Assembly: GCA_963818475.1 (NCBI GenBank)
Contig: CAWFSF010000006.1
Span: forward strand, 1,760,001 to 1,824,000
Length of the DNA: 64,000 nucleotides
Direction of reading: 5' to 3'
Source: Nitrospirota bacterium
GTDB taxonomy: Bacteria; Nitrospirota; UBA9217
In this document: piece after piece, positions 17,958-54,719 of the stretch
How positions within the stretch are numbered: position 1 is the first letter of the stretch
How the letters are laid out: each line of letters starts with the position of its first letter
Made by a program: the position numbers and the translations under genes
The notes under the pieces: model-generated
The model's database searches: none
What the model saw: only the letters and a program-made list of their open reading frames with translations
What the model was told of the DNA's origin: nothing

Positions 17958-18233
17958 ATCAGGTAGCCGGGGGATTCCCTCCCCCAGCCCCCACACCACC
18001 CGGCGTGCGGGTCCGCACCGGGCGGTTCGCGAAAGTCATCGGGCCGTATGGTGAATCTTGATCCACAGTGTTCGCATTGACGTAAGCCCCTGCTTCGTGA
18101 GATATGCGTTGGACAAGCCCACGTTTATCGCTTCGGTCTTCGCAAGATGCCAGTAGGCTTTCCTGCTCATTCCAGCCTTGACCGCGTGCCGCTCGCCCAC
18201 ACAGTTTTGTCTGACACCAGAGGCAGAGTACAA
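17958..18233 (-). mobile_element. Group IIC intron 3' remnant (maturase tail, domains V and VI)
   Basis: Minus strand GAACCGCCCGGTGCGGACCCGCACGCCGGGTGGTGTGGGGG...GGCTACCTGAT; upstream frame SRKAYWHLAKT..GLSNAYL..QGL resembles intron RT C-termini. Confidence 0.85.
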
Positions 18234-39220: not shown

Positions 39221-39349
39221 TCTCGCAAAGGCGCAAAGGTCGCCAAGAAGGTCAAAAACAAAAAGCATTAAGCGTTGTCTTAATAAAAAACATCGTACTC
39301 AGGTTTTTATACCTTAGATTTCCTTTGCGTACTTTGCGCCTTTGCGAGA
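39221..39349. repeat. Gene-less copy of GxxExxY-associated inverted repeat, family A
   Basis: tctcgcaaaggcgcaaaggtcgccaagaa ... ttcctttgcgtactttgcgcctttgcgaga. Confidence 0.85.
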
Positions 39350-39401: not shown

Positions 39402-40604
39402 ATGACTACAGCCTACTTCGACTGCTTTTCCGGCATATCCGGCGACATGACCCTCGGCGCTCTCGTGGATGCAGGCGTCAGCATCGATGCCCTGCGCGCA
39501 GAGCTTGCGAAATTGAACCTGCCCGGTTACGAGATCACGGCAGAGAAGGTGATGCGCTCCGGCATCTCTGCAACAAAGGTGCATGTCAGGCTTGATGCTA
39601 AACCTCAACCCGCGCGCCACCTCGCGGACATCGGTCAGATCATCGAAGACTCAGAACTGTCCACATCGATCAAACAAAAGAGCATCAGGATATTCGAACG
39701 TTTGGCCCAAGCCGAAGCCAAAGTTCACGGCACAACGCCTGACAAGGTCCACTTTCACGAGGTCGGCGCGGTTGACGCCATCGTCGACATTGTGGGCTCG
39801 ATCATCGGGCTAGACTTGCTCGGGATCACGACCATTGCCGGCTCTGCCGTAAACCTTGGCTCCGGTTCGATCAAAACAGCACACGGCGTACTCCCGGTCC
39901 CTGCGCCAGCCACGGCGGAACTGCTCAAGGGCATCCCCTCCTACGGGTCATCAGTGCCCTTTGAGCTCACCACGCCGACCGGAGCGGTCATCCTGAGCAC
40001 CTTAAGCTCATCTTTCGGCCCCATGCCGCAGATGAACGTGTCACGGACAGGACACGGAGCCGGGAACAAGGAAATTCCGGGCCAGCCGAACGTGCTCCGG
40101 CTCATGATCGGCGAACCTGCTTCAGCCTATGACGAGGACAAATCTGTCGTCATTGAGACGAACATCGATGACATGAACCCGCAGCTCTATGAGCATGTTA
40201 TCGACAAACTCCTGCAGCAGGGCGCCCACGACGCCTACCTCACGCCGATCATCATGAAAAAAGGGAGGCCGGCGATCCTTCTTTCAGTTCTGACGGATAA
40301 GATGAAGGAAAGCGCCATCCTTGAAACGATCTTCCGCGAGACCACCAGCATCGGCGTCCGGATCCAGGAAGTGGGCAGAAAGAAGCTGACCCGCGAGATA
40401 GAGCTCGTTGAAACGGCCTACGGAAAGGTCAGGGTCAAAGTGAGCAAGCGGGGAGAGGAAATACTCACGATTACCCCGGAGTATGAGGACTGCAAGAAGA
40501 TCGCGGAAGAGAAACATGTACCCTTGAAGCAAGTTATGGAAGAAGCGAAGGGTCTGTTTTCTCGCAAAGGCGCAAAGGTCGCAAAGGAAATCAAAGACAA
40601 ATGA
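39402..40604 (+). CDS. larC: Nickel insertion protein LarC
   Basis: DCFSGISGDM; VHFHEVGAVD; ETNIDD; MKKGRP; PEYEDC. Confidence 0.93.
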   Translation: MTTAYFDCFSGISGDMTLGALVDAGVSIDALRAELAKLNLPGYEITAEKVMRSGISATKVHVRLDAKPQPARHLADIGQIIEDSELSTSIKQKSIRIFERLAQAEAKVHGTTPDKVHFHEVGAVDAIVDIVGSIIGLDLLGITTIAGSAVNLGSGSIKTAHGVLPVPAPATAELLKGIPSYGSSVPFELTTPTGAVILSTLSSSFGPMPQMNVSRTGHGAGNKEIPGQPNVLRLMIGEPASAYDEDKSVVIETNIDDMNPQLYEHVIDKLLQQGAHDAYLTPIIMKKGRPAILLSVLTDKMKESAILETIFRETTSIGVRIQEVGRKKLTREIELVETAYGKVRVKVSKRGEEILTITPEYEDCKKIAEEKHVPLKQVMEEAKGLFSRKGAKVAKEIKDK

Positions 40605-41028
40605 CCGAGAATCAGCTGGCAAAAATCGTTGTGGATCTTTGCTTAAAAATACATAGGCTTCTCGGTCCAGGGTTGCTAGAATCAGTATATGAAGAGGCGC
40701 TGGCATATGAACTGAAAAAGCTCGGGATCCTGTTTGAACGGCAAATAGGAATCCCGGTCTCATATGAAGACATAAAGATGGACTTAGGATTTAGAGCGGA
40801 TTTAGCAATAGACAATAAGATAATCGTTGAGTTGAAATCCATTGAGAACATTTTACCTGTCCATAAGAAACAAGTCGTGACCTATTTAAAGTTAACTAAA
40901 ATGAGACTCGGACTTCTTGTCAATTTTAATGTCGAGTTGATCAAAGATGGTATCATTCGTATAGCCAATGGACTTTGATCTTAACTCAGGCCTACGCCTT
41001 CCTTTGCGACCTTTGCGCCTTTGCGAGA
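40560..41028. mobile_element. Putative GxxExxY element A: gene between perfect 30-bp inverted arms
   Basis: 40560-40589 tctcgcaaaggcgcaaaggtcgcaaaggaa is the exact reverse complement of 40999-41028; mobility is inferred. Confidence 0.6.
40601..40978 (+). CDS. GxxExxY protein (PD-(D/E)XK-like)
   Basis: GPGLLESVYE; RADL..IIVELKS; Q..TYLK; GLLVNF; AT-richer than neighbours. Confidence 0.92.
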   Translation: MTENQLAKIVVDLCLKIHRLLGPGLLESVYEEALAYELKKLGILFERQIGIPVSYEDIKMDLGFRADLAIDNKIIVELKSIENILPVHKKQVVTYLKLTKMRLGLLVNFNVELIKDGIIRIANGL

Positions 41029-42815: not shown

Positions 42816-42981
42816 TCTCGCAGAGGCGCAGAGTATGGCTAAATTGGCCAAGATCATCTCTCGCAAAGTCCGCAAAGGTCGCAAAGGAAGGCTAAATTCT
42901 GAGTCTTAACAAGCAACACGTAATTGTTATTTGCAATTTGCTTTTGATCTACTCTGCGCACTTTGCGCCTTTGCGAGAGAT
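42816..42981. repeat. Gene-less family A inverted repeat with an extra left arm
   Basis: tctcgcagaggcgcagag; tctctcgcaaagtccgcaaaggtcgcaaagg ... ctctgcgcactttgcgcctttgcgagaga. Confidence 0.8.
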
Positions 42982-43017
42982 AATTTTTGATTATCTTTGG
43001 CCTCGCGAGTCGACTCT

Positions 43018-43866
43018 ATGTCAACAGGAACCCTCTACATAGTCGCCACACCCATCGGTAACCTTGAGGACATGACCCTCAGGGCTATCCGTGTGCTGAA
43101 GGAAGCGGACCTCATCGCTGCCGAGGACACGCGCCACACCCGGCACCTGCTCGACCGCTACCAGATCGACACGCAGCTCACCAGCTACCACGACCATAAC
43201 AAGGAAGAGAAAGCTCCGGTCCTTGTCGCCCGTCTTCTCGAAGGGAAAAGCGTGGCACTCGTGTCGGATGCGGGAACTCCCGGTATATCAGACCCTGGCT
43301 ACTTCCTTATCAACCTCGCCATTGATCAGAAGATACCCGTCGTCCCTATCCCCGGCGCAACTGCAGCCATTGCCGCCCTCTCGATCTCAGGCATGCCGAC
43401 CGACCGGTTCATTTTCGAAGGTTTTCTCCCTGCCAAGCACCTGGCCCGGCAGAAACGGCTTCAGGACCTGGTGAAAGAAGAACGCACCCTGATCTTCTAC
43501 GAAGCACCGCATAAGATCATTAAAGCAGTCGAGGACATGCTCGAAGTTCTCGGCGACCGCCATGCAGTCATCACCCGGGAACTGACGAAGATCCACGAGG
43601 AAGCCATCAGGGGAACCCTTTCCGAGATCCTCAAGCGCCTGAACGAGGGCTCGATCAAAGGCGAGTTCACCGTCATCGTGCACGGCGCGTCAGCAGAACC
43701 GCTGAAGCAGGATATCGATACCGGTGAATATCTTAAGAACCTGATGCTGCATCGGGGCCTGAGCAAGAAAGAAGCGATCGCTGCTACTGCGGAGGAGCTT
43801 GGGTTGCCGAAGAAGGAAGTGTATAAGGAAAGCTTGAAGATAGAGGATGATAGGAACCGCGAATGA
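43018..43866 (+). CDS. rsmI: 16S rRNA C1402 2'-O-methyltransferase
   Basis: LYIVATPIGNLED; AEDTR; VSDAGTPGISDPG; RELTKIHEE. Confidence 0.96.
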   Translation: MSTGTLYIVATPIGNLEDMTLRAIRVLKEADLIAAEDTRHTRHLLDRYQIDTQLTSYHDHNKEEKAPVLVARLLEGKSVALVSDAGTPGISDPGYFLINLAIDQKIPVVPIPGATAAIAALSISGMPTDRFIFEGFLPAKHLARQKRLQDLVKEERTLIFYEAPHKIIKAVEDMLEVLGDRHAVITRELTKIHEEAIRGTLSEILKRLNEGSIKGEFTVIVHGASAEPLKQDIDTGEYLKNLMLHRGLSKKEAIAATAEELGLPKKEVYKESLKIEDDRNRE

Positions 43867-44337
43867 ACGCTAACGAACACGAATTGATCTTGAAGGATGA
43901 AGTCTTTCAAATCGTGGGCGCGGCGATGGAAGTGTCTAATGAATTAGGGTGCGGTTTTCTTGAAGCGGTTTATCAGGAAGCCTTGGAGATCGAACTTGAT
44001 GAGCGAAAGATTCCTCATGTGCCCCAGAAGCGGATAGAGATCCCCTACAAAGGCAGGATATTGAAAAAAGAGTACAATGCGGACTTTTTGTGTTATGACC
44101 GGATCATGGTCGAGATCAAGGCCATCAAAGCGATCACGGGGATAGAAGAAGCTCAGATCCTGAATTACTTGAAGGCAACGAATCTTCCGCTTGGGCTGGT
44201 CGTCAATTTCGGTGCGCCTCAGCTTGAATGGAAACGCTATGCCAACACCAGGAGGAACCACTAATGAACACTAATGTACGCGAATTAAGAACAAAAACAA
44301 GGAAGTTATTAGCGTCCATTCGCGTTCATTCGCGGTT
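43855..44337. mobile_element. Putative GxxExxY element B: gene between 3x10-nt inverted arms
   Basis: Left arm aaccgcgaat gaacgctaac gaacacgaat (43855-84); second left arm 44256-85; right arm 44308-37 (25/30 to the first). Confidence 0.55.
43863..44264 (+). CDS. GxxExxY protein (PD-(D/E)XK-like)
   Basis: GCGFLEAVYQE; ADF..IMVEIKA; QILNYLK; GLVVNFG. Confidence 0.92.
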   Translation: MNANEHELILKDEVFQIVGAAMEVSNELGCGFLEAVYQEALEIELDERKIPHVPQKRIEIPYKGRILKKEYNADFLCYDRIMVEIKAIKAITGIEEAQILNYLKATNLPLGLVVNFGAPQLEWKRYANTRRNH

Positions 44338-44620
44338 GATCTCGGCTCTGTTGATCTGTGCATTGTTAACCACCGGCTGTGCAACACTCACTACCGCTAC
44401 GCACTTTACCCCAGAAAGCCCGATGATATATAGCGGAACCAGGCTTGACTTACATGCGAGCGCAAATCACGATGAGATACTCCGCGTTTACAGCGATAAG
44501 TATGGTGTAGAACCACCGGCCTATCCAAAATTAGATCTCCCCTTCAGCCTATTGTTGGATACGCTAATTCTTTTCCCTGTCGTATACCCTATTGCTCTGT
44601 ATCAAGCTGTTTTCGACTAA
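44264..44620 (+). CDS. YceK/YidQ-like lipoprotein
   Basis: TTGC lipobox; YSGTRLD; DLPFSLLLDTL. Confidence 0.7.
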   Translation: MNTNVRELRTKTRKLLASIRVHSRLISALLICALLTTGCATLTTATHFTPESPMIYSGTRLDLHASANHDEILRVYSDKYGVEPPAYPKLDLPFSLLLDTLILFPVVYPIALYQAVFD

Positions 44621-45103: not shown

Positions 45104-46231
45104 ATGTCCAAAGTCTACTTCTCTACCGCCCGCACGCTCCGCTGGGACTACAGCCACAGCGGGCCGGGCAAGCTCGAAACCCTGCTCCGGAAAATGAACT
45201 TCTCCGACCGGTTTACGGAAGACGAATGGGTCGCGATCAAGACCCATTGGGGCTCCCATGGCGCGTTCCGCATCGTGCCTCCGGTCATGATCCGCAAGGT
45301 CGTTGAAGCGGTCAAAGAAACCGGCGCCAAGCCCTTTGTCACGGACACGGTCAGGATCATGGGGCTCGACTACATCGAGGTGGCGAACCAGAACGGCCTG
45401 AACCATCTCTCCTGCGGCGCGCCGGTGGTGCTGGCTGACGGGCTCTACGGCAAGGACAGCATCCTGGTCAAGGCCGGCCCGATCCTGGGCGAGATCGCTG
45501 TTGCCTCGACCATCCACGACGTTCCGGCCATGGTCGTCTGCACGCACACGAAAGGCCACATCAACTCGGGCTATGCCGGGGCGCTCAAGAACCTGGCAAT
45601 GGGCTGCGTCAGCTCCCGCCACCGGGACCATGGCTGGAAAAAAGGCCGCGGCTCCATGCACTGCCACGGGGAATCGAACCTGCAGTGGAACCAGGAGCTC
45701 TGCACCTTCTGCGAACAGTGCAAAAGCATCTGCCCCCTGAACGCCATCGACTTTAAAGACGGGGCATTCACCGTGGACAAGAACACCTGCTGGCATTGCG
45801 GCAGGTGCAGCCGGGTCTGCCAGGAAGGCGCGCTCACGCTGCCGCAGGACGACGTTACCTTCCAGAAAAGCCTTGCCGAGGCTGCAGCTGCAGTTCTTTC
45901 GACCTTCAAAAAAGGCAAGGTCATTTACATCAACTTCCTGTACGAGATCCAGCCCGAGTGCGACTGCATGCCGACTGCCGACGTGCCGATGATCCAGGAC
46001 CAGGGCATCATGATCTCCGATGATATCGTGGCCATCGAACAGGCGTCCCTTGATATGCTCAAAACCGCCCCTCCCCTGCCCCAGTCGGCTGCGGAAGAAT
46101 CTGCAACTTGCTCCAGGAGATGATATACTGTTATAAATTGAACCCCAGGCCAATGCAGCATCCAAATCGACGAAGCGGAGAAGCTGGGGCTCGGTACAAG
46201 GAAGTACGAATTGGTGAGGATTGAACCTTAA
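45104..46231 (+). CDS. DUF362 / 4Fe-4S protein (frameshifted 3' end)
   Basis: AIKTHWG; two CxxCxxCxxxC; PECDC; tail EKLGLGTRKYEL in a shifted frame. Confidence 0.82.
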
Positions 46232-46240
46232 AGACAGTTG

Positions 46241-46334
46241 AACCGCGAATGAACGCTAATTTTCGCGAATAAATCAGAAACATAATTCATGTCTTAAAGT
46301 TTTCATTCGTGTTCATTAGCGTAAATTAGCGGTT
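46241..46334. repeat. Gene-less family B inverted repeat
   Basis: aaccgcgaatgaacgctaattttcgcgaat ... attcgtgttcattagcgtaaattagcggtt. Confidence 0.8.
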
Positions 46335-46351
46335 AAAAGGAAAGGTTTTAC

Positions 46352-47788
46352 ATGACCAAACGCACCAAGATCATCGCCACCATCGGCCCGGCATCCAGCT
46401 CCCCTGCGATCATCGCCAGGCTCATCCGAGCTGGCATGGACGCGGCTCGGCTGAACTTCTCGCACGGCGAGCGAGAAGACCATATCAAGCGCATCAACCT
46501 CATCCGCAGCGAGGCGGCTAAGGCGGGAAAGCATATCGCGATCATCCAGGATCTGCAGGGACCGAAACTGCGCGTCGGCGCCATAAAGAACGACGCGGCA
46601 GTGCTCAAGCGCAACGACACCATCGTGCTTACGACGAAGAAGATCGTCGGCACGAGCGAACAGGTATCCATAACCTATCCCCGGCTTACCAAGGACCTGA
46701 AGGTCGGCGACACCGTGCTGCTCGACGACGGCAGGCTGGAGTTCAGGGTCGTGAAGAAAAACGCGCAGACGCTCTCTTGCAAGATCATCCGCGGCGGCGT
46801 GCTCAAGAGCCACAAGGGCGTCAATCTGCCCGGGGCGAAGCTCTCGCTTCCCTCGCTGTCGACCAAGGACCGTGAGGACCTCCGGTTCGGCGTCAAACAG
46901 GGTGTTGACTACATCGCGCTCTCGTTCGTGCGCACGGCAAAGGACATCCTCCAAACCCGACTTTTCATCCAGTCGCTGAAAGCGGATATTCCGATCATCG
47001 CGAAGATCGAAAAACCCGAGGCCATCTTGAACCTCGATGAGATCATTTGCGAAGCCGACGGTATCATGGTCGCCCGCGGCGACCTGGGCGTGGAGATGTC
47101 GCCCGAAAAGGTTCCGTTGCTCCAGAAAATGATCATCGAAGCCTGCCACTGGGCTGAAACACCGGTGATCACGGCGACCCAGATGCTCGAAAGCATGATC
47201 GAGAACCCCCAGCCCACGCGCGCCGAAACATCGGACGTGGCGAACGCGATTCTCGACGGCACGGACTGCGTCATGCTTTCCGGAGAGACCGCGGTTGGCA
47301 AGTATCCGGTCCAGAGCGTGGAGTTCATGGCGCGCATCGCGCTGCAAGTCGAGACATCGGTCAATCCCTGGCCTCCGGACGTTGACGTTGCCGGCATGGG
47401 AGAAAGCGTTGCCCATGCCGCCTGCCGCGCAGCCGAGGAACAGCAGGCGCAGGCCATCGTGCCCTTTACCCAGTCCGGATCAACCGCCCTTCTGGTCTCG
47501 AAACACCGTCCGCGGATGCCTATCATCGCGCCGACGCCCTTCGAGCAGGTGGCCAGAAAAATTTCGCTCTACTGGGGAGTTACACCGGTTATCCTGAAGG
47601 CAAAAAAAACTACCGACGACATGATCACGAGCGTGGAAGGGATCATGCTCAAAAAGAAGCTGGCAAAGCAGCACGATCTCATCGTGATCACGGCAGGCGT
47701 GCCCATCGGCGTTGCTGGAAGCACCAACATGATGAAGATCCACCGGGTGGGCGAGGCGACGAGCCTGGAGTCGAAAAAGAGGTCATAG
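46352..47788 (+). CDS. pyk: Pyruvate kinase
   Basis: RTKIIATIGP; RLNFSHG; IIAKIE; MVARGDLGVE; ATQMLESM. Confidence 0.97.
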   Translation: MTKRTKIIATIGPASSSPAIIARLIRAGMDAARLNFSHGEREDHIKRINLIRSEAAKAGKHIAIIQDLQGPKLRVGAIKNDAAVLKRNDTIVLTTKKIVGTSEQVSITYPRLTKDLKVGDTVLLDDGRLEFRVVKKNAQTLSCKIIRGGVLKSHKGVNLPGAKLSLPSLSTKDREDLRFGVKQGVDYIALSFVRTAKDILQTRLFIQSLKADIPIIAKIEKPEAILNLDEIICEADGIMVARGDLGVEMSPEKVPLLQKMIIEACHWAETPVITATQMLESMIENPQPTRAETSDVANAILDGTDCVMLSGETAVGKYPVQSVEFMARIALQVETSVNPWPPDVDVAGMGESVAHAACRAAEEQQAQAIVPFTQSGSTALLVSKHRPRMPIIAPTPFEQVARKISLYWGVTPVILKAKKTTDDMITSVEGIMLKKKLAKQHDLIVITAGVPIGVAGSTNMMKIHRVGEATSLESKKRS

Positions 47789-47830
47789 GCCGGTAATTGC
47801 ATGAATCTTATAGCGGCAAGAAAGGAGAAT

Positions 47831-47951
47831 CTTTGACACGGATACCAAGTAGGCGCTTCTAAGCGAGTGCGGATTTAATTATGAAGAAGCATGATACACC
47901 CTGCTTTATCCGCTTTTATCATAGCCTTTCTCTGATTTTTCCGTGTCAAAG
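47831..47951. repeat. Degenerate inverted repeat element
   Basis: ctttgacacgga / tccgtgtcaaag termini with inner gcggat / atccgc. Confidence 0.5.
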
Positions 47952-48033
47952 TTTTAACTCTTTGGCTGTATGATGAATGAATAGCGCAGTACTTAATGAA
48001 TGCGCATATCTTTTTTAAGAGAGGACGAAAACG

Positions 48034-54638: not shown

Positions 54639-54719
54639 CCGCTGATCACGAAGATTTCACCGATAAAAAAACCTGTACTACTTTTCTTAAAAATCTGCGT
54701 TTATCTGCGAAATCTGCGG
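54639..54719. repeat. Gene-less inverted repeat with 3-unit periodic arms
   Basis: ccgctgatcacgaagatttcaccgat ... atctgcgtttatctgcgaaatctgcgg. Confidence 0.65.

Follow-up and report, generated by a model that had tools for sequence, protein, structure and literature searches.

Element B of a Nitrospirota genome, a GxxExxY gene between arrays of 7-nt words, as a probable case of a nuclease-repeat partnership

Element B is a compact genetic element in a 64,000-nt stretch of DNA from a Nitrospirota bacterium (positions 1,760,001 to 1,824,000 of contig CAWFSF010000006.1, assembly GCA_963818475.1; hereafter the window), in which an intact GxxExxY gene stands between inverted arms built of short repeated words. 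On balance, it probably exemplifies a widespread nuclease-repeat partnership, wherein the gene for a small RecB/Cas4-like PD-(D/E)XK nuclease lies within or next to a palindromic element. The arms of such an element would each consist of three 7-nt words of the form C-R-C-N-R-A-K at a fixed 8-10-nt spacing, with both the word and the spacing kept by each protein clade. Several non-overlapping pairs of word and protein would coexist in one genome; among those here are element A, with CGCAAAG at 8-9 nt, and element B, with CGCGAAT at 10 nt.

Element B and Its Arms

The left arm of element B, L1 (43855..43884, + strand; AACCGCGAATGAACGCTAACGAACACGAAT), is 30 nt long and carries the words CGCGAAT, CGCTAAC and CACGAAT at 10-nt spacing. 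It overlaps the 3′ end of rsmI, the gene for 16S rRNA (cytidine1402-2'-O)-methyltransferase (42997..43866, + strand; TIGR00096, 2.5e-86), whose last codons and TGA stop (AGG AAC CGC GAA TGA) lie inside the arm. L1 also holds the ATG of GxxExxY gene B, and the stop and start codons overlap as ATGA. Gene B itself (43863..44264, + strand) is intact and encodes 133 aa (PF13366, 4.1e-39; TIGR04256, 1.6e-41). Its TAA stop falls in a second left arm, L2 (44256..44285, + strand), which a repeat search identifies as a direct copy of L1 (44253-44286 against 43852-43885, 34 nt, 82% identity). L2 further contains an in-frame ATG of the downstream open reading frame (ORF), a DUF1375 (YceK-like) lipoprotein gene (44264..44620, + strand; PF07119, 2e-07).

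Behind L2, the sequence and the repeat search delimit an A-rich loop of 22 nt (44286..44307), which is followed by the right arm R (44308..44337, - strand; ATTAGCGTCCATTCGCGTTCATTCGCGGTT). The minus-strand words of R are CGCGAAT, CGCGAAT and CGCTAAT, and this arm can pair with either L1 or L2. With L1 it forms an inverted repeat of 30-nt arms, 83% complementary with 423 nt between them, and with L2 it is 80% complementary across the 22-nt loop. If the DUF1375 gene starts at the L2 ATG, its 5′ end crosses L2, the loop and R; alternatively, translation would begin at an in-frame TTG at position 44336. A hairpin lies directly 3′ of the stop codon in all five members of the B clade that were inspected. 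As RNA, positions 44250-44345 fold at -24.1 kcal/mol (z = -2.24), and the stems carry regular mismatches.

The inverted-repeat score of element B (+1/-1) is 20, whereas 300 shuffles of the two flanks give 8.2 +/- 1.1 and at most 11. Checking the arms for intrinsic terminators gave no call, and no T-run follows the right arm, where GATCTCGG is found. The whole window searched against Rfam at the gathering threshold gave no match on the arms and no rRNA. The first-pass annotation of this DNA had described arms of three 10-nt units bracketing gene B, with a second left arm right behind the gene, and had argued that they were not chance terminators. The repeat search recovers both features at the positions given above, each arm being three 7-nt words at a period of 10 nt, so that each 10-nt unit comprises a 7-nt word and a 3-nt spacer, and the score above all 300 shuffles, together with the lack of a terminator call or T-run, bears out the argument.

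Element A, 3 kb away, has the same architecture. Its GxxExxY gene (40601..40978, + strand) lies within an element that spans 40560..41028 and ends in perfect 30-nt arms (40560-40589 and 40999-41028) with the word CGCAAAG at 8-9-nt spacing; the inverted-repeat score is 30, against 8.1 +/- 1.2 in shuffles. The proteins of elements A and B share 34% identity. The annotation had noted that the architecture agrees and the sequence differs, as is found here (CGCAAAG at 8-9 nt against CGCGAAT at 10 nt). Judged by their letters, the two arm families are nevertheless variants of one word class, CRCNRAK, and not unrelated sequences.

Protein B as a PD-(D/E)XK Nuclease

Protein B scores 134 bits against PF13366 (PDDEXK_3; curated cut-off 22) and 141.3 bits against TIGR04256 (cut-off 35), and PF13366 is the sole match in a Pfam scan of the gene B ORF. 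In an alignment of 52 sequences, no variation is seen at E34, D74, E84, K86 or Q98, and Y102 is conserved in at least 90%, giving the pattern E...D...ExK...QxxxY, which we take to be the RecB-family motifs. The AlphaFold model of protein B (predicted local distance difference test score, pLDDT, 89.6; predicted template-modelling score, pTM, 0.83) finds Cas4 SSO0001 (4ic1, E 6e-5) as its top fold match in the PDB, with a restriction-endonuclease-like protein, lambda exonuclease and RecE among further matches. A search of the PDB by sequence with a 4-sequence profile reached a best E of 0.057 and found no solved relative. The alignment and the predicted fold place protein B in the RecB/Cas4-like PD-(D/E)XK fold, with its catalytic motifs intact.

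Compared with its ortholog in the same-genus genome G003, gene B has a ratio of nonsynonymous to synonymous substitution rates (dN/dS) of 0.09 at a synonymous divergence (dS) of 0.59, which indicates strong purifying selection on the protein. The GxxExxY family is large, as 13,803 representative clusters match protein B at E <= 1e-3. Its longer homologs are fused to unrelated neighbouring genes of various kinds, and no recurrent fusion-partner domain or conserved partner gene was found among them.

Co-Diversification of Words and Proteins

The association between arm word and protein clade was examined over 151 loci, comprising 11 from the assembly that contains the window (G000; 4.66 Mb, 7 contigs, 91% complete), 60 from the same bacterial family and 80 from wider genome contigs (19 named phyla). 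At least two class words (C[AG]C..A.) are present in each flanking arm at 102 of the 151 loci; among these are 47 of the 80 wider-contig loci, from 14 named phyla. A quick IQ-TREE analysis (LG+G4) of 145 near-full-length proteins over 127 columns, in which 31 of 142 inner branches are strongly supported, was used to map the words, with 99 of the 145 proteins having a scorable word. For every trait the number of changes on the tree is lower than in any of 500 label shuffles. The whole word changes 49 times (shuffle mean 76.3, minimum 69), word position 7 changes 10 times (mean 35.9), word position 5 changes 16 times (mean 29.7) and the spacing changes 23 times (mean 47.0).

The tree divides into Clade I (67 rows), where words mostly end in G and the spacing is 8-9 nt, and Clade II (78 rows), where words mostly end in T and the spacing is 9-10 nt. 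Element B belongs to a well-supported clade of four rows with CGCGAAT, and element A to one of 12 rows, with CGCAAAG in 11 and CGCAGAG in one. Between genomes, the sharing of words falls with protein identity, from 0.90 at identities of at least 80%, through 0.82, to 0.52 at 60-70%, and then through 0.20 to 0.06 at 40-50% and 0.02 at 30-40%.

That arm type is random with respect to protein clade, the outcome named in the first-pass annotation as contrary to its view, is rejected by this mapping. The annotation had proposed that protein and repeat co-diversify as cognate pairs, as expected of a specific recognition system. The first part, co-diversification, is supported by the tree; the second does not follow from it, because gene and arms are physically linked and a tree-wide association is therefore expected even without recognition. 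A count of phylogenetically independent pairs, in which word position 7 is set against protein columns, yields only two supported pairs (five on all branches), too few for power.

Evidence Beyond Linkage

Several observations bear on recognition independently of the tree. Among 56 pairs of paralogs with less than 60% identity in one genome, none has a word in common, and both G000 and G011 have five loci with five different words. This indicates that the host does not set the word. The words also outlast the DNA around them: between G000 and G003, the three arms of element B differ at 6 of 90 positions and synonymous sites at 33 of 80.7, and the right arm R of the G003 ortholog is identical at 30 of 30 positions despite the dS of 0.59. 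Among proteins of 60-80% identity, free word positions are identical at a frequency of 0.71, compared with 0.47 for spacers. By these comparisons the words are selectively conserved, beyond the level of spacers and synonymous sites.

Arms also cluster by family around the genes. Within 3 kb of eight gene loci there are 14 same-family arms, where 0.41 are expected and none of 2000 random placements reaches 14, whereas other-family arms are not enriched (5 against 3.5 expected). Across 41 related genomes, the number of arrays rises with the number of PF13366 matches (Spearman 0.75), with a median of 144 arrays in genomes with the gene and 1 in those without. Direct recognition of the arm word by its cognate GxxExxY protein would be the most economical explanation of these patterns, and we hold it with moderate confidence.

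Arms and GxxExxY Loci Across the Genome

A regular expression of three class words finds 373 arms in G000; the first megabase of contig C6 contains 59, compared with 1-2 in shuffles. An unbiased scan of the same genome returns 329 inverted repeats, 180 of which have internally periodic arms, with loops mostly of 20-100 nt. In a stricter census there are 392 arms, made up of 111 gene-less hairpins and 170 unpaired arms. These fall into about seven word families, all of the one class C-R-C-N-R-A-K. The largest is CACGAAG, with 30 gene-less hairpins, followed by CGCAAAG (18), CACGGAG (16), family B with words ending in AAT (13), CGCGGAG (10), CGCAGAG (8) and CGCAGAT (7). Of the 111 hairpins, 81 have one and the same word in their two arms, where random pairing would give 15.9; in the others the mismatch is mostly at word position 4. 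Arm identity among gene-less copies of one family is 0.83-0.91.

PF13366 has 13 matches in G000, which correspond to 11 loci, and for six of the seven main hairpin families there is a GxxExxY locus with the same arms. Besides its 13 gene-less hairpins, family B has arms around one decayed gene copy; arm family B is genome-wide and not private to gene B. Families whose gene is intact have 19, 18, 16 and 13 hairpins, and those whose gene is decayed or absent have 11, 10, 8 and 7, a post hoc comparison (n=8) that is not relied on. At C2:774195-774810, downstream of an intact GxxExxY gene without a left arm, the final ~40 nt of the gene recur as two tandem copies, and a hairpin with CGCAAAG/CGCAGAG at 10-nt spacing comes next; these tandem copies are a local duplication beside the arms.

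The window contains several gene-less hairpins, including one of family B 1.9 kb downstream of element B (46244..46331) and two of CGCAAAG, at 42862..42975, 1.8 kb downstream of element A, and at 39224-39346. A CGCAGAT arm lies at 54693-54718 (- strand), and arms of this family flank GxxExxY genes in other genomes (e.g. L064, L072, L095, L126). Elsewhere in the window, positions 17958-18027 (- strand) match the Rfam group II intron catalytic domain (RF00029, 43.3 bits, gathering score 40).

A second protein family is found in a comparable setting. All five strong G000 genes for PF05635 (23S_rRNA_IVP, a four-helix-bundle protein) stand between inverted arms of tandem units (C6:2338101-2338415, C3:7651-7962, C6:864517-864816, C6:1705765-1706049 and C6:1993680-1993967). 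Four of these have 7-nt units (e.g. ATTGCGG, GAAGTTT, ATTGGAA, AGGGTCA/AGTAGCA) and one has 8-nt units, none of them CRCNRAK by inspection. PF05635 appears to be a second kind of cargo, carried by an arm class of its own.

Element History and Hairpin Turnover

In G003, element B is present at the same place and its DNA is about 90% identical. That genome has in addition a gene-less hairpin, behind which the final ~21 nt of rsmI are repeated, as would be expected of a tandem duplication with subsequent gene loss between direct arm copies. Gene B of G003 is without a stop codon, and its ORF continues through L2, the loop and R into the DUF1375 gene; the read-through product (P0001; locus L059, G003:C7:84273-85311) is called as a protein of 252 aa with both PF13366 and PF07119. 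What remains in G002 at the same site is the left arm with some 16 nt of the gene, beyond which the sequence is rearranged. In the congener G005 the element is absent, rsmI ends differently and the downstream gene is different. No clean empty site for element B was found in G002, G003 or G005.

The gene-less hairpins behave otherwise. Two orthologous intergenic sites hold different hairpin families across five same-genus genomes (window positions 46180-46400 and 47740-48030; L164-L170). The first has a family B hairpin here and other hairpin families in four congeners, two of which have CACGGAG together with a hairpin of the TTGACACTGAT type. The second has a hairpin of the TTGACACGGAT type here and in G005, and CGCAAAG in G003 and G004. 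This difference at orthologous sites indicates that gene-less hairpins turn over.

Proposed Mechanism

In the nuclease-repeat partnership favoured here, the GxxExxY protein would read its own word array, probably with one subunit per word, and would nick or cut the DNA there, through putative binding, cleavage and action in trans. As the break is repaired or copied, the arms would spread or become uniform, through a presumed copying mechanism. The outcome would be many gene-less hairpins of the same family, preferentially near the gene, much as a RAYT (REP-associated tyrosine transposase) enzyme maintains its REPIN population. In family B, where stop and start codons (TAATGA) form part of the arms, insertion of an element would end the upstream host ORF, and the element may be translated by coupling to that ORF.

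A number of results weigh against this proposal, in addition to the linkage of gene and arms discussed above. Elements A and B are, by comparison of congeners, old and vertically inherited within the genus, with no recent movement seen. Six-frame reading of the 11 GxxExxY loci in G000 shows six to be intact and five decayed. For the CGCAGAT family, which comprises 7 hairpins and 33 unpaired arms, the 91%-complete G000 contains no GxxExxY locus flanked by its arms. The loops of gene-less hairpins are about as alike as shuffled loops in six of eight families, and none of 111 hairpins has a target-site duplication of 5 or 6 bp; a 3-bp flanking duplication occurs at 6 of 111, compared with 1.8 (maximum 6) when partners are shuffled. 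Arrays without any PF13366 match are present in G001 (206 arrays, 65% complete), G020 (67, 91%), G029 (44, 98%) and G038 (183, 92%). In G029, which belongs to another family of the same phylum, arrays of CGCGGAG/CGCAGAG lie inside an element resembling a miniature inverted-repeat transposable element (MITE; L171-L176), which has outer inverted repeats of its own (ATCCTAG...CTAGGAT) and is conserved in its interior.

Simple copy-and-paste of whole hairpins does not agree with the unrelated loops and the lack of target-site duplications. What is conserved or copied seems to be the 30-nt arm and not the hairpin. Either the arms alone would be copied or homogenised, or the hairpins would be old, with selection acting on their arms only. 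A more specific version of the proposal, which is offered only tentatively, is that GxxExxY is a large family of word-reading nucleases that copy or homogenise arms and not loops, the replicator being the 30-nt word array. Every clade would then recognise its own 7-nt word, threefold and at the spacing typical of that clade, and several pairs could share a genome without interfering with one another.

Alternative Explanations

The strongest competing explanation, although an unlikely one, is that the hairpins are themselves the replicators, moved by a host function or an unlinked enzyme, with the gene being merely the loop content of one copy per family and its co-variation with the word a matter of linkage. 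The four genomes with arrays and no detected gene fit this explanation, as do the arrays of G029 within an element that has other terminal repeats. It also gains from the unrelated loops of the hairpins, which suggest that any DNA, including a gene, could be a loop, from the yield of only two supported pairs in the independent-pairs test, and from the unrelated small PF05635 proteins in analogous hairpins of G000. However, a passive cargo gives no reason for the strong purifying selection on gene B (dN/dS 0.09), nor for words that outlast spacers and synonymous sites. Up to five words occur in one host, each with its own protein clade, and a single host factor cannot set the word. Furthermore, all five PF05635 genes use units other than CRCNRAK, so cargo and arm class are not swapped, and it is same-family arms, not those of other families, that cluster by the genes.

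A somewhat more doubtful alternative acts at the level of RNA. Here element B would be a cassette comparable to the ORF-bearing intervening sequences found in 23S rRNA, in which an RNA stem pairs the ends of the transcript and insulates the expression of a small gene in operons; the stem would be cut by RNase III or would protect the mRNA, and any contact between protein and word would be autoregulatory. Arms that tightly bracket the ORF and provide stop and start codons in operons would suit such a cassette, and the L2/R hairpin does fold as RNA with the energy given above, even though its stem has regular mismatches that count against this reading. The fusions of longer homologs to unrelated neighbours are as expected for insertion into operons, and PF05635, a family named after the 23S intervening sequences, occupies similar hairpins in this genome. 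Against this, a pure stem permits compensatory change, which leaves a single word class across 14 phyla unexplained, along with the clade-specific spacing and the hundreds of gene-less hairpins and unpaired arms.

Still less probable is a domesticated host function, wherein the protein would be a sequence-specific DNA-binding nuclease or regulator (e.g. in genome maintenance or defence) and the arrays its intergenic binding sites. Three sites about one helical turn apart are a typical layout for cooperative protein binding, and the fixed site across the genus, the vertical inheritance and the strong purifying selection are all compatible with such a role. Decay of 5 of 11 loci in G000 is not, and the gene is patchily distributed even within the bacterial family (19 of 24 genomes). 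Hairpin families are moreover replaced at orthologous sites, and no conserved partner gene or domain was found. Finally, that the arms are chance inverted repeats or ordinary intrinsic terminators, which their positions at gene ends and between genes might suggest, is refuted by the shuffle score (20 against at most 11 in 300 shuffles), the terminator search with neither call nor T-run, and the recurrence of the same arm in 13 gene-less hairpins and beside orthologs in other genomes.

Literature and Significance

In the published literature on GxxExxY (PDDEXK_3, PF13366, TIGR04256), no description of a repeat association was found, and the one catalogue entry found for the family gives its function as 'Unknown'. 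A search on the intervening-sequence protein, the four-helix bundle, inverted repeats and heptamers likewise found nothing relevant. If each clade does read its own word, the arms would be the first candidate substrate for the GxxExxY family, and a large share of the intergenic palindromic repeats in many phyla would be explained. The pairing would constitute a second, mechanistically independent partnership of repeat and enzyme beside REPIN-RAYT, and the natural map from word to protein could be read as a DNA recognition code. If the replicator is the word array, this would be a mode of mobile DNA so far undescribed. G000 offers a ready test set for specificity, with at least five intact pairs of gene and word, and with elements A and B only 3 kb apart. 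The analysis presented here tests the pairing of word and protein quantitatively, in a genome where several such pairs reside together.

Comparison with Known Systems

In fold and motifs, protein B resembles Cas4, RecB, lambda exonuclease and small PD-(D/E)XK homing endonucleases (e.g. I-Bth0305I). Unlike these nucleases, it is a minimal stand-alone domain associated with repeat arrays, and has no helicase, intron, intein or CRISPR context. Protein B has two cysteines only and not the four of the iron-sulphur (Fe-S) cluster found in Cas4 proper, and its gene is neighboured by rsmI and a lipoprotein gene. In view of the missing Fe-S cysteines and CRISPR context, protein B is not Cas4 proper.

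The hairpins of class words share with MITEs that they are short, non-coding, dispersed, intergenic and bounded by terminal inverted repeats. However, they have no 5-bp target-site duplication (0/111), their interiors are non-homologous and no DDE transposase parent is seen. Without a target-site duplication or a homologous interior, they are not classical MITEs. The intervening sequences of 23S rRNA (S23p / PF05635) are similar to element B in that a small ORF is carried in a long inverted-repeat stem and gene-less versions exist. Element B, in contrast, lies between rsmI and the DUF1375 gene, encodes another protein family and has another class of word; its location outside any rRNA gene excludes it from the 23S intervening sequences.

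The closest analogue of element B is the REPIN-RAYT system ('REPtron'), in which an enzyme gene is described as flanked by inverted short repeats and accompanied by many gene-less doublets (PMC3116915; PMC3337134; 10.1101/2021.07.10.451892). The two differ in that the GxxExxY enzyme is a PD-(D/E)XK protein of roughly 125 aa and RAYT is an HUH/Y1 (IS200/IS605-like) transposase, in that the GxxExxY arm has three tandem 7-nt words at 8-10-nt spacing and the repetitive extragenic palindromic (REP) sequence is a single imperfect palindrome, and in that many GxxExxY gene copies are decayed. With a different enzyme and a different repeat, element B is not a member of REPIN-RAYT. The resemblance lies in the organization: both have an enzyme gene of single or few copies between inverted copies of a short repeat, and far more gene-less intergenic palindromic doublets than genes (here 13 of family B and 111 of all families). 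Both also have several repeat families per genome, each with its own gene, as with the five loci and five words of G000 and of G011, and in both, transmission is mainly vertical and purifying selection acts on the gene.

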